Source: a virus. From it: a DNA stretch of 41,353 bases. This document shows positions 3,767-34,544 of the stretch, piece by piece (the first letter of the stretch is position 1; the number at the start of each line of letters is the position of its first letter). The notes beneath the pieces are model-generated. The model made no database searches, was not told the origin of the DNA, and saw only the letters and a program-made list of their open reading frames with translations. The translations under genes were made by a program, and so were the position numbers. The stretch is from the UHGV virus genome UHGV-0007119. One strand, 5' to 3'.

Positions 3767-3834
3767 GTTGGTTTTTCTCCACGGATTTACTGACAACCGA
3801 AGCCCTGACTGTTCCCGCAGTTGGGGCTTCAACT

Positions 3835-30906: not shown

Positions 30907-31017
30907 ATGCCCTCCATAGTAACCATGAAACAATAATACGATATGTACTTTTAGAATGCAAACAAAAAATACATCTTGTGCATGGATGGTTTTAGTACAG
31001 AGCGTAATAATAAGGGT
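30907..31017. promoter_or_regulatory. OR region: pR (minus strand), pRM and candidate operators
   Basis: pR on minus strand: TTGCAT (30961-30956), 17-bp spacer, TATTAT (30938-30933). Candidate operators AATACGATATGTACT (30936-30950) and AATACATCTTGTGCA (30968-30982). Confidence 0.7.
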
Positions 31018-31677
31018 ATGAAAATGAAATGGTATGAACTGGCTAGATCCAGAATGAAAGAGCTCGGCATAACTCAAGAGAAGTTAGCTGAAGAGCTTGG
31101 TATGACGCAGGGTGGAATTGGTCACTGGTTGCGCGGATCTCGTCATCCATCTCTTGACGAGATTGGTGTGGTGTTTAAATACCTTGGTATTGATAACGTC
31201 TCATTCAACCACGACGGTACATTTTCACCTGTTGGCGAATACTCATCTGCCCCCGTTAAAAAACAATATGAGTACCCTGTTTTTTCTCATGTTCAGGCCG
31301 GGATGTTCTCGCCTGAGCTTAGAACCTTTACCAAAGGTGATGCGGAGAGATGGGTCAGCACAACCAAAAAAGCCAGTGATTGTGCGTTTTGGCTTGAAGT
31401 TGAAGGTAATTCCATGACCGCTCCAACAGGATCCAAGCCAAGCTTTCCTGACGGGATGTTAATTCTCGTTGACCCTGAGCAGGCTGTTGAGCCAGGTGAT
31501 TTCTGCATAGCCAGACTTGGTGGTGACGAGTTTACCTTCAAGAAACTGATCAGGGATAGCGGTCAGGTGTTCCTACAGCCACTAAACCCGCAATATCCAA
31601 TGATTCCATGCAATGATAGCTGTTCCGTAGTAGGGAAAGTTATCGCCAGCCAGTGGCCTGAAGAGACATTTAGTTAA
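31018..31677 (+). CDS. cI: CI-type prophage repressor (HTH plus S24 autopeptidase domain)
   Basis: C-terminal ~135 aa (…[37 protein letters not shown]…) near-identical to remembered lambda CI; N-terminal HTH domain differs. Start 31018 or 31024. Confidence 0.9.
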
Positions 31678-31707
31678 CAGCCTCGCCACTCTAAAACACA
31701 CAACAAT

Positions 31708-31738
31708 AACCCGACCTTAGCGTCGGGTTTCTTTTTCC
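31708..31738 (+). terminator. Intrinsic terminator downstream of the repressor gene
   Basis: Stem CCCGAC/GTCGGG followed by TTTCTTTTTCC. Confidence 0.55.
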
Positions 31739-31755
31739 AAAATATAAACCCATTA

Positions 31756-31830
31756 AATACAAAGCGTTATAAAAAACTAATTATATTTAGAACATTTTGT
31801 ATTGACTCGATAAAGTACAAATCGTACTAT
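31756..31830 (+). promoter_or_regulatory. pL promoter with candidate OL operators
   Basis: TTGACT (31802-31807), 17-bp spacer, TACTAT (31825-31830); palindromic AGTACAAATCGTACT (31814-31828) overlaps spacer/-10; second site AATACAAAGCGTTAT (31756-31770). Confidence 0.65.
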
Positions 31831-31869
31831 TTAGCCATCAGCAGGACGCACTGACCACCATGAAGGTGA

Positions 31870-31900
31870 TGCTCTTAAAAATTAAGCCCTGAAGAAGGGC
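31870..31900 (+). promoter_or_regulatory. nutL (boxA + boxB)
   Basis: TGCTCTTAAAAATTAA followed by GCCCTGAAGAAGGGC, matching remembered lambda nutL. Confidence 0.85.
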
Positions 31901-32072
31901 AGCATTCAAAGCAGAAGGCTTTGGGGTGTGGTGAAGGGTTCATGGATGGGAATATGTCGCACGTAAAGCGGCGAGGCCTGCGGAACTATTGCCGAATTGA
32001 AGTCGGCCGAAGCAGGTCGAAATGGGTCTCCCACCTACCACACCACCAAAGCTAACTGACAGGAGAATCCAG

Positions 32073-32399
32073 ATGGATGCACAAACACGCCGCCGCGAAC
32101 GTCGCGCAGAGAAACAGGCTCAATGGAAAGCAGCAAATCCCCTGTTGGTTGGGGTAAGCGCAAAACCAGTTAACCGCCCTATTCTCTCGCTGAATCGCAA
32201 ACCGAAATCACGAGTAGAAAGCGCACTGAATCCGATAGACCTTACGGCGCTGGCTGAATACCACGAACAGATTGAAAGCAACCTGCAACGTATTGAGCGC
32301 AAGAATCAGCGCACATGGTACAGCAAGCCACGCAGTGAAATGGGCGTGACTTGTGTTGGTCGCCAGAAAATGAAATTAGGCAGCAAACCACTTATTTGA
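32073..32399 (+). CDS. N: Antitermination protein N (lambda type)
   Basis: Start MDAQTRRRERRAEKQAQWKAANPLLVGVSAKPVNRPILSLNRKPKSR… after AGGAG; near-identical to remembered lambda N. Confidence 0.9.
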   Translation: MDAQTRRRERRAEKQAQWKAANPLLVGVSAKPVNRPILSLNRKPKSRVESALNPIDLTALAEYHEQIESNLQRIERKNQRTWYSKPRSEMGVTCVGRQKMKLGSKPLI

Positions 32400-32407
32400 G
32401 GTGAGAT

Positions 32408-32878
32408 ATGACAAAATCATGGAGCGTACCTTTTCCTGAATCAGAAACTGAACATGATGGAATGCCTGTTTTCTGGAGATTCCAGGCGACAGTTGAAGAA
32501 GATGGAATCAAAATATTCGCACTTCAATATATAGCTTTTCATCAGACAGAGCATTATGCATGGTTGGTTCCTGCGCATTGGATTGTTGATTTTAAACCAG
32601 CACCAAATCAGTGGTTACAGGAATGGAAACAAAAGAGAAATAGATATGCAATTAAGAAAGTAGCAAAAAATGCAGAAAGATCTTTTGCATTCCCAACGAA
32701 GAAACTTGCCATTGAAAGTTTATTGCGCCGGAAGAAATACCATTTAATGAGAATCAAACAAGATTTGGCTGTTGTATCAACTCTTGTTGATGGGATGAAG
32801 AATATTGATACATCAACACCAGATATTGAATATAACTTTGGACACAACCAAGAAACAGAAAATTGGGTATTTTATTAG
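32408..32878 (+). CDS. Hypothetical 156-aa protein (AT-rich moron immediately downstream of N)
   Basis: ATG after GAGGTGAG; no recognisable motif or transmembrane segment; much lower GC than flanks; followed by a hairpin and an intrinsic terminator. Confidence 0.65.
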   Translation: MTKSWSVPFPESETEHDGMPVFWRFQATVEEDGIKIFALQYIAFHQTEHYAWLVPAHWIVDFKPAPNQWLQEWKQKRNRYAIKKVAKNAERSFAFPTKKLAIESLLRRKKYHLMRIKQDLAVVSTLVDGMKNIDTSTPDIEYNFGHNQETENWVFY

Positions 32879-32982
32879 TACAAATAAGCACTGTGTATTC
32901 ATTCCAACGAGTGAATACACGGAGCAATGTCGCTCGTAACTAAACAGGAGCCGACTTGTTCTGATTATTGGAAATCTTCTTT

Positions 32983-33009
32983 GCCCTCCAGTGTGAGGGC
33001 CTTTTTATA
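32983..33009 (+). terminator. Intrinsic terminator after the N-proximal moron
   Basis: Stem GCCCTC/GAGGGC with 6-nt loop followed by CTTTTTAT. Confidence 0.6.
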
Positions 33010-33072
33010 TGCATACCAATAACGCTTCACTAGAGGCGTTTTCGTTATGCAATCAAACAGAAGGAGCATCCT

Positions 33073-33243
33073 ATGCAACAGTTCGCTATTGCAGGGGCGG
33101 CATCGGTTCGCCCTTTCAACCCGATTTTATCGGTACAGCATTCACGAAAAAACATTTTAACCGGAGCAGACTTTAAACAACCAAGAATGAAAAGCTTGCT
33201 CGAAAAGCTTTGGGATATTTTGAAACAACAAGGCCGTCCATGA
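33073..33243 (+). CDS. cIII: CIII-like protein (candidate FtsH-inhibitor peptide)
   Basis: 56 aa MQQFAIAGAASVRPF…KSLLEKLWDILKQQGRP; below the ORF-track threshold; AGGAG RBS; resembles lambda CIII core (…SLLERI…RLIDILNQPG…). Confidence 0.6.
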   Translation: MQQFAIAGAASVRPFNPILSVQHSRKNILTGADFKQPRMKSLLEKLWDILKQQGRP

Positions 33244-33324
33244 GTTTTACAGACAACTGGTCAGACGAAGAATTCATTCGTCAGATGAACAAAATGCTCA
33301 ATCAGCACAAAGAACAGGAGAAAG

Positions 33325-33636
33325 ATGATGATTCTGACTCTGAATGATAAGCGTGAAATATCGCAAATAATCGCAAGTTTTACTGATGAAGATTACGAGC
33401 GAATCAACAGTGAAGTTGATCGCCTCTGCAAACGTTGCGACCCAATAAGCGAAATGCTTCGCTCATATAAACCAGATGAACACACTAAGGACGCTATCGA
33501 CTGGCTGGAAGATGATGACTGTAACTATCAGGAAAAAGCCGCTGAATGGTTCTGGGATGCAATAACCGAAAGAGTTAAGGCTGAATATGCCTTCGCAATA
33601 TTCAAACGCAGACACATTTTTGGAGAAGCAGCATGA
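33325..33636 (+). CDS. Hypothetical acidic protein upstream of recT
   Basis: 103 aa; ATG after AGGAG; ATGA overlap with recT start; a 36-aa alternative ORF (33240-33350) overlaps its 5' end. Confidence 0.5.
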   Translation: MMILTLNDKREISQIIASFTDEDYERINSEVDRLCKRCDPISEMLRSYKPDEHTKDAIDWLEDDDCNYQEKAAEWFWDAITERVKAEYAFAIFKRRHIFGEAA

Positions 33637-34544
33637 GCAATATCGTTGAATTCGTTAAACAGCAGGAGCAGTTATTCTGCGGAGCATTGACTGAACAGAC
33701 GGTGACATGGGCTAAGGAAAGCCAGTTTGCAATTCAGTATTTCCAGAAAAACGATTACCTGGCTAAAACAGCACTGGCAAACCCAACCAGCGCACAGAAC
33801 GCCATCATCAATGTTGCGGCGATCGGTATCACCTTAAACCCGGCTAGCAAACTGGCTTATCTGGTTCCGCGCGACGGCATGGTGTGCCTTGATATCAGTT
33901 ATATGGGATTGCTCCATATTGCAATGGAGTCTGGTGTTATCTCATGGGGTCAGGCAAAACTTGTTCATGCTAACGATACCTATGAGTCAAACGGGCTTGA
34001 TAAAGCACCAACCCATAAATACAACGCCTTCGGTGATCGTGGTGATATCGTTGGCGTTTACTGCACAGTTAAGACGCCAGCAGGTGATTATCTAACGGAA
34101 GAGATGAGTCTGGCTGAAATTGAGGCTGTAAGGAAAACAAGCAAGGCGGCATTCAGCGATAAAGGACCATGGGTAAATCACTGGAATGAGATGGCGCGAA
34201 AGACGGTCGTAAAGCGTGCAAGCAAGTATTGGCCTAAGGCATCACGTCTTGATAGTGCTATTCACGTACTAAACGAAGAAGAAGGTGTGTGGACTGAACC
34301 AGTTATGCCGCACAAATCAGAGGAAGATATCCGCGAAGATGAACGGAAACGCCAGCAGGAAATAATGGAAAAAGCACAACTTCTTTGTGATGAAATGGCT
34401 CAGGCTGAAAAAATGGATGATTTGAAGAGATATTTTGCAGAAGCATATCGCCTGACATCTGGAATGAAATTGCAGCAGAACATACAAGCCATTTACATAG
34501 AATGCAAAGCGAAACTGGAGGTTGCCAGTGAGCAAACTGTATGA
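33633..34544 (+). CDS. recT: RecT-family single-strand annealing protein
   Basis: 303 aa; …DKGPWVNHWNEMARKTVVKRASKYWP… parallels E. coli RecT …NNGPWVTHWEEMAKKTAIRRLFKYLP…. Confidence 0.85.
   Translation: MSNIVEFVKQQEQLFCGALTEQTVTWAKESQFAIQYFQKNDYLAKTALANPTSAQNAIINVAAIGITLNPASKLAYLVPRDGMVCLDISYMGLLHIAMESGVISWGQAKLVHANDTYESNGLDKAPTHKYNAFGDRGDIVGVYCTVKTPAGDYLTEEMSLAEIEAVRKTSKAAFSDKGPWVNHWNEMARKTVVKRASKYWPKASRLDSAIHVLNEEEGVWTEPVMPHKSEEDIREDERKRQQEIMEKAQLLCDEMAQAEKMDDLKRYFAEAYRLTSGMKLQQNIQAIYIECKAKLEVASEQTV

Follow-up and report, generated by a model that had tools for sequence, protein, structure and literature searches.

In phage lambda, the interval of the leftward (pL) operon between the antiterminator gene N and cIII carries sieB, ral, orf28 and ea10. 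Ral is known for the alleviation of type I restriction and SieB for superinfection exclusion. In phage HK97, the position after N is occupied by gene 45, and the same gene is found in the Shiga-toxin (Stx) phages 933W (NP_049479.1) and Stx2-phage 86 (orf57). The virus genome UHGV-0007119, whose 41,353 nucleotides are referred to here as the window, has an open reading frame (ORF) for a protein of 156 amino acids directly behind N. A first-pass annotation of this DNA, made from the sequence without database searches, had recognized the location as one where lambda holds ral and sieB, and the positions of lambda sieB, ral and ea10 in the N–cIII interval bear this out. The ORF is a copy of gene 45, with the same position behind N and with the 3' untranslated region (UTR) and terminator of the HK97, 933W and phage 86 versions. 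The distribution, predicted structure and predicted timing of this gene, called gp45 below, are described here, and a tentative function is weighed against its rivals.

The match to HK97 gene 45 (Gp45, AAF31125.1) is close – 98.3% nucleotide identity by megablast, and 98.1% identity to Gp45 by tblastn. The protein also matches PHROG 1636, a family of unknown function, over its full length (residues 1–156 against profile positions 1–156, E = 1.4e-111). The gene had been taken for an orphan in the first-pass annotation, a description that does not survive the database searches, which place it in a broad phage family. Both the gene and its terminator are already known as features, since they have been annotated since the HK97 genome; the finding is in itself ordinary, as uncharacterized early accessory genes are common. 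A search of the literature found nothing on the HK97 gp45 (phrog_1636) gene.

Distribution of the gp45 gene

The region was found by megablast in 336 phage records, which have the flanks in common, while the ORF itself was present in only 88 records (tblastn). These include H-19B, 933W/EDL933-Stx, BP-4795, Min27, Stx2 phage I and phage 86 (orf57), and the annotation is hypothetical throughout. The gene is missing from lambda and from many relatives that have these flanks, so by this comparison it is a dispensable accessory gene of lambdoid phages. It is also common in prophages: 598 of 5,426 complete E. coli genomes (approximately one in nine) encode it, with a maximum of four copies in one genome; the protein is recorded as WP_000167581.1, 'hypothetical protein'.

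Homologues with 55–85% identity are encoded by Salmonella phage NX263 and by prophages of Pectobacterium, Brenneria, Cronobacter and Rosenbergiella. A profile search among 1.84 billion representative sequences returned 87 proteins at E ≤ 1e-3, most of them stand-alone proteins of 130–160 amino acids with ca. 20–25% identity. Relatives in annotated genomes belong to phages of Vibrio, Pseudomonas, Pantoea and Klebsiella. A Foldseek search of BFVD with the predicted structure gave 12 matches at E ≤ 1e-3, all uncharacterized phage proteins, from phages of Erwinia, Achromobacter, Delftia, Sinorhizobium, Rhizobium, Cellulophaga and Tenacibaculum. The PHROGs database returned only families of unknown function (1636, 13631, 25384 and 18686).

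Remote members of the family are placed among small early genes or genes for replication and recombination. Two of them, in unrelated phages, are one or two genes away from DNA methyltransferases: one in Pantoea phage LIET2 (L014, 2465–3980), near a Dcm-type methyltransferase, and one on a metagenome contig (L019, 5001–7794), near DNA_methylase and MethyltransfD12 genes. With n = 2, this is suggestive of an anti-restriction neighbourhood.

Selection and predicted structure

The ratio of non-synonymous to synonymous substitution rates (dN/dS) was 0.07–0.18 in comparisons where synonymous sites were not saturated; between genera they were saturated. Forty alignment columns are invariant among 22 homologues from the Enterobacterales. 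Judged from these substitution patterns, the ORF is a real protein-coding gene under purifying selection.

The encoded protein is stand-alone, has a mass of 18.6 kDa and a pI of 8.7, and is rich in tryptophan (4.5%). The mean Kyte-Doolittle hydropathy over 19 residues peaks at 0.56 and the sequence libraries gave nothing, in agreement with the earlier description of a soluble protein with no recognizable motif. The core is basic, with a net charge of +12 over residues 57–131, and both ends are acidic.

Structure prediction depended on the depth of the alignment. With the 22-sequence alignment, AlphaFold reached a pLDDT of 79, with four of the five models near 50. With 86 sequences including the remote members, AlphaFold (AF2) reached a pLDDT of 95 and a pTM of 0.82, and all five models were at 89 or above. 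The model has a sheet of three antiparallel strands (residues 19–30, 33–46 and 50–55), followed by two short helices, a strand at 83–86, a 33-residue helix at 98–130 and an ordered C-terminal tail. An alpha/beta fold is thus predicted confidently, and it is without a solved relative.

In a set of 65 remote members, polar conservation covers [FY][YW]R (residues 22–24), G33, E/Q46-T47, K75, K83/84, K87, R91/92, K109 and a C-terminal F-D. The polar residues that are conserved family-wide are mostly basic or aromatic. The Enterobacterales clade has additional invariant motifs, SWxVPFPES near the N-terminus and FGHNxETxxWxF near the C-terminus.

Queries of the sequence libraries used the single protein as well as the 86-sequence profile. 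No PADLOC model, a set that represents proteins of defence systems, was matched. Structure prediction followed by a structural-database search, a check that the first-pass annotation had proposed, found no match in the PDB – neither a solved anti-defence protein nor any other structure – and in BFVD only the 12 proteins above. Several specific identities were considered and rejected. The hhalign probability with the 86-sequence profile was 0.13% for lambda Ral and 0.13% for lambda Ea10 (lambda Ssb-like), and 933W carries the ea10 and gp45 genes side by side. The three-stranded sheet plus helix was compared with two DNA-binding domains, and the probability was 0.3% for the AP2 domain (ERF1) and 0.7% for the N-terminal arm-binding domain of lambda Int. 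A resemblance to Tudor, KOW and SH3-like RNA-polymerase-binding domains was not significant by structure or by sequence. Two apparent multi-domain matches in the profile search (P0060 and P0080) were unrelated repeat proteins, and no informative domain fusion was found.

Predicted transcription and timing

Coordinates of the features discussed in this and the following sections are collected in Table 1. The pL-like promoter is the sole promoter-like site found on the + strand between 31802 and 33246 in the pattern scan. It is downstream of the repressor gene (30976–31677) and the bidirectional terminator of that gene (31708–31729), and its placement relative to cI, nutL and N fits the lambda layout. 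The nutL site is near-identical to that of lambda in a pairwise alignment. A consensus scan of 31830–33246 (+ strand) found no promoter for the ORF itself, though a pattern scan is not proof of absence.

Table 1. Predicted features of the pL operon from the promoter to cIII in the window.
Feature	Position	Strand	Description
pL-like sigma-70 promoter	31802–31830	+	TTGACT-17-TACTAT; pattern scan
nutL	31870–31900	+	boxA-like TGCTCTTAA at 31870–31878; boxB hairpin GCCCTGAAGAAGGGC at 31886–31900
Antiterminator N	32073–32399	+	108 aa; Pfam N36, E = 1.7e-26; PHROG 271
Mosaic cassette	32330–33001	+	variant N C-terminus, Shine-Dalgarno, ORF, structured 3' UTR, terminator stem
Shine-Dalgarno	32398–32405	+	GAGGTGAG; overlaps N stop codon; direct sequence reading
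gp45-family gene	32408–32878	+	156 aa, ATG start; HK97 gp45 / PHROG 1636 family (WP_000167581.1)
First hairpin	32891–32922	+	14 bp, perfect, no U-tract; 13 nt past the ORF stop codon
Second hairpin	32921–32962	+	imperfect; −16.4 kcal/mol, z = −3.7
Intrinsic terminator	32983–33009	+	6-bp GC stem, 6-nt loop, T-run; pattern scan and folding
Second terminator-like hairpin	33021–33040	+	in cIII leader, outside cassette; −9.9 kcal/mol
cIII	33073–33243	+	56 aa; next pL-operon gene; PHROG 550, E = 1e-22

In the scheme known from lambda, N is made from pL transcription and then permits read-through of the terminator tL1 (PMC8065619). The pattern scan found no + strand intrinsic terminator between pL and the ORF, nor anywhere in 31830–32983. 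The first one predicted on the pL transcript is that at 32983, past the ORF, and it is therefore positionally equivalent to tL1. Because this terminator lies after the ORF, gp45 should be co-transcribed with N on the N-independent, immediate-early pL RNA, as far as the anatomy of the operon indicates. The first-pass annotation had expected the ORF to be the first N-antiterminated product; the location of the terminator instead predicts that it is made without antitermination. Translation is probably coupled to that of N, as suggested by the overlap of GAGGTGAG with the N stop codon and by the start codon that follows at 32408. The protein would then be present from the earliest minutes after infection or induction, and none would be made in a repressed prophage; expression from the repressed prophage appears unlikely from the arrangement of these sites.

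The Brenneria and Pectobacterium prophages show a different arrangement. Their homologues (L007, 4953–5540 and L008, 4952–5537; 63% identity) are still in the leftward early operon, at its int-proximal end directly upstream of xis-int, with no adjoining N and with intrinsic terminators on both sides. The distance from the upstream terminator to the start codon is only ca. 28 nt. A separate promoter would not fit into this space, which favours a lytic-cycle gene and disfavours expression in the lysogen.

A mosaic cassette with a structured 3' UTR

In a pairwise alignment, the window is identical to lambda from nutL to approximately codon 86 of N (ca. 32329) and divergent from ca. 32330; lambda-like sequence returns at ca. 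33010, in the cIII leader. The lambda-identical flanks reported in the first-pass annotation therefore hold, with the left boundary inside N. Between these limits, a cassette of 0.67 kb stands where lambda has its sieB-ral-orf28-ea10 segment. The ORF within it has a GC content of 35.9% (27% at third codon positions), lower than in N (50.5%) and in the window as a whole (46.3%), and a 200-nt profile drops to 0.325–0.355 across 32500–32899. The low GC had been noticed at first reading, as had the ribosome-binding site and the 8-nt gap to N (32400–32407), and all of these agree with the present coordinates, the ATG start and the GAGGTGAG motif. The motif is unchanged in HK97, 933W and the prophage of E. 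coli 100117. The GC content of the Brenneria and Pectobacterium homologues, 43–45%, is again under the expectation for their hosts.

The left junction of the cassette is within the N coding sequence (ca. 32330, codon ca. 86), so that the last ca. 20 codons of N (EMGVTCVGRQKMKLGSKPLI) are a cassette-borne variant. Whereas the window has a lambda-type N that ends 8 nt before the ORF, HK97 and 933W have a different N that ends 58 nt upstream of it. The EMGVTCVGRQKMKLGSKPLI stretch is present in these two phages as the non-coding 58-nt spacer behind their N, a remnant of the end of a lambda-type N. As this spacer is identical to the last codons of N in the window, the organization seen here, where a lambda-type N leads directly into the ORF, looks like the ancestral one of the cassette.

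The ORF, both hairpins and the terminator stem are 100% conserved in four genomes despite differences in the gene downstream, which is cIII in the window and HK97, ea10 in 933W and a 322-aa ORF in E. coli 100117. Similarity among the copies stops right after the terminator stem. On the evidence of these alignments, the ORF, the structured 3' UTR and the terminator stem travel as one mosaic cassette. In the E. coli 100117 prophage (L004, 4615–5583), which has a 100% identical copy of the gene, the hypothetical protein WP_060624670.1 (322 aa) is encoded between the cassette terminator and cIII; this insertion marks the N–cIII interval as a variable accessory slot.

The 3' UTR as a whole has a folding z-score of −5.2. 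The first hairpin contributes −18.8 kcal/mol (z = −7.0), and none of 200 shuffled sequences folded as well. A hairpin with a 9-bp stem had been described earlier at 32894–32920; the structure is present, and its length was understated, the stem being 14 bp over 32891–32922. HK97, 933W and E. coli 100117 conserve the first hairpin at 100% together with the ORF; the Brenneria and Pectobacterium homologues do not have it. It is possible that this hairpin is a stabilizer of the 3' UTR or a processing site. A weak antisense promoter-like site (TACACA-17-TAAAAT, 9/12 matches) at 32897–32869 (− strand) overlaps this hairpin, is directed into the ORF from its 3' end, and is probably a chance occurrence.

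The intrinsic terminator was correctly placed in the first-pass annotation. It consists of the stem GCCCTC/GAGGGC (32983–33000) and the tail CTTTTTATAT, and the HK97 record marks the same site as a putative terminator. The stem is kept in three different downstream contexts, and each variant retains a T-run.

Possible functions of gp45

We propose, tentatively and with rather less than even confidence, that gp45 is an accessory protein of the early lytic cycle whose target is widely conserved and probably polyanionic, and that its binding serves counter-defence or host takeover. The guess at the ligand comes from the occurrence of the family in phages of very different hosts together with its conserved basic and aromatic residues, and our confidence in a polyanionic ligand is low. 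The charge of +12 in the core speaks for this guess, as does the placement of distant members among small early genes, in two cases close to DNA methyltransferases. Candidates would be nucleic acid, a nucleotide-derived signal, or a universal component of the host or of its defences, and the protein would act on it as a helper of the early lytic cycle, either against defence or in the takeover of the host. Slot and timing are compatible with an anti-defence role, an argument from position. A further-reaching proposal, which we regard as unlikely, is that the gp45 family founds a new fold class of early phage proteins that neutralize a widespread bacterial immune mechanism. Sequestration of a nucleotide signal would be one way to do this, and the shielding or occupation of nucleic acid another; the protein would be made simultaneously with N in the Stx phages and HK97. 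If true, it would explain the retention of the gene in phages of both Proteobacteria and Bacteroidota and its location in an accessory hot spot.

Several results weigh against an early counter-defence or takeover protein. Pfam, NCBIfam, PADLOC and the PDB sequences contain no credible match to gp45, and no likeness in sequence or fold was found to known anti-defence, anti-restriction, or DNA- or RNA-binding families. Its neighbours vary among 10 diverse loci, with no gene recurring consistently. The conserved E46 is replaced by Q in the E. coli clade, which makes the argument for a ligand site soft. The predicted timing rests on a scan for intrinsic terminators, and Rho-dependent termination between N and the ORF and RNA processing are outside the reach of such a scan. 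Finally, the Brenneria and Pectobacterium gene sits behind a terminator, so immediate-early timing is not a family-wide property.

The basic core would suit an early DNA-, RNA- or RNA-polymerase-binding protein that regulates the phage's own development, tuning pL/pR, antitermination or the choice between lysis and lysogeny. The tight link to N, with the junction between the variant N C-terminus and the ORF as a conserved ancestral arrangement, also points this way. However, no KOW, Tudor or CarD family was found in Pfam at E ≤ 1, and the half-site of the first hairpin recurs elsewhere in the window no more often than expected by chance, which leaves no candidate for a set of operators. The gene is also missing from lambda and from most lambdoid phages with the same N, and its linkage to N does not hold in Brenneria, Pectobacterium or distant phages. 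We give this alternative a minor share of the probability. Deviant low GC and a terminator of its own are the classic signature of a moron, and both a moron and the presence of lambda sieB in the same interval would be in keeping with a gene that serves the lysogen – through superinfection exclusion or defence against other phages – and is expressed in the prophage in the manner of sieB and rex. One distant homologue, which stands alone on the opposite strand within a block of structural genes, fits this as well. Yet no promoter-like site was found in the stretch from pL to the ORF, and the short gap in front of the Brenneria and Pectobacterium genes offers no place for one. The protein has neither a membrane segment nor a PADLOC match, and in the stretches examined, the phage records of some relatives have neither an integrase nor a repressor listed. 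These points make a lysogen function improbable.

The strongly structured 3' UTR, which accompanies the ORF at 100% identity, raises the question of whether the protein is incidental, with selection on a structured RNA (a tL1-type terminator or a small RNA derived from the 3' UTR), or even a spurious ORF. A protein that is conserved down to ca. 20% identity across phyla, with dN/dS far below 1 and a confidently predicted fold, makes this very hard to believe. In addition, Brenneria and Pectobacterium keep the ORF with a different, short 3' UTR, and no Rfam family was matched in 31650–33350, even at E ≤ 1.

The protein is among the first products to be expected upon induction of Shiga-toxin phages (933W, H-19B and Sakai-type), HK97 and many E. 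coli prophages, and if it counters defence or reprogrammes the host it would have a bearing on the spread and induction of Stx phages. It is also a cheap and well-defined experimental target – small, soluble and dispensable, with genetics available in HK97 and lambda hybrids.

Other features of the window

Beyond the cassette, the second terminator-like hairpin (AACGCTTCACTAGAGGCGTT followed by TTCGTTATGC) is 30 nt upstream of cIII and has a near-exact match in the cIII leader of lambda; it may belong to the regulation of cIII. A 45-aa ORF at 33210–33347 (+ strand) occupies the place of kil in the annotation of related prophages, overlapping cIII at its end. A 103-aa ORF at 33325–33636 (+ strand) matches PHROG 3486, of unknown function, and is just upstream of RecT (33633–34544).

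The first 24 kb of the window are ca. 95% identical to HK620-type podoviruses. A full-length match to the sar RNA (Rfam RF00262, 95.6 bits, E = 2e-19) is found at 3767–3834 (+ strand); the sar RNA is an antisense RNA of the P22 immI region. Together these identify the window as a P22/HK620-like prophage with a lambda-type nutL-N.

Comparison with known systems

Phage T7 gp0.3 (Ocr) is comparable only as a functional analogy. Like Ocr, gp45 is small, soluble and stand-alone and is predicted to be among the first products of its phage. Ocr is a highly acidic DNA mimic, in contrast to gp45 with its basic core and pI of 8.7, and the fold searches gave no match to Ocr.

Morons, a concept reportedly introduced by Juhala et al. 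in 2000, are extra genes with deviant GC and a terminator of their own. The gp45 gene shares with the HK97-type morons the form of a discrete cassette, a lower GC content, a 3' terminator and an occurrence in several contexts. It differs from them in that no promoter of its own was found and in its location in the early operon instead of among the late genes.

The closest parallels by position are Ral, SieB, Orf28 and Ea10 of lambda. In the two hhalign comparisons, with Ral and with Ea10, no sequence relationship was found. SieB is a membrane protein, whereas gp45 is soluble without a hydrophobic segment. A gene of the sieB type would encode a membrane protein, and the lysogen would express it from a promoter of the gene's own; gp45 has no membrane segment, and the only promoter-like site upstream is pL. 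What gp45 shares with all four lambda genes is the slot in the pL operon and, like them, its standing as a dispensable accessory gene.
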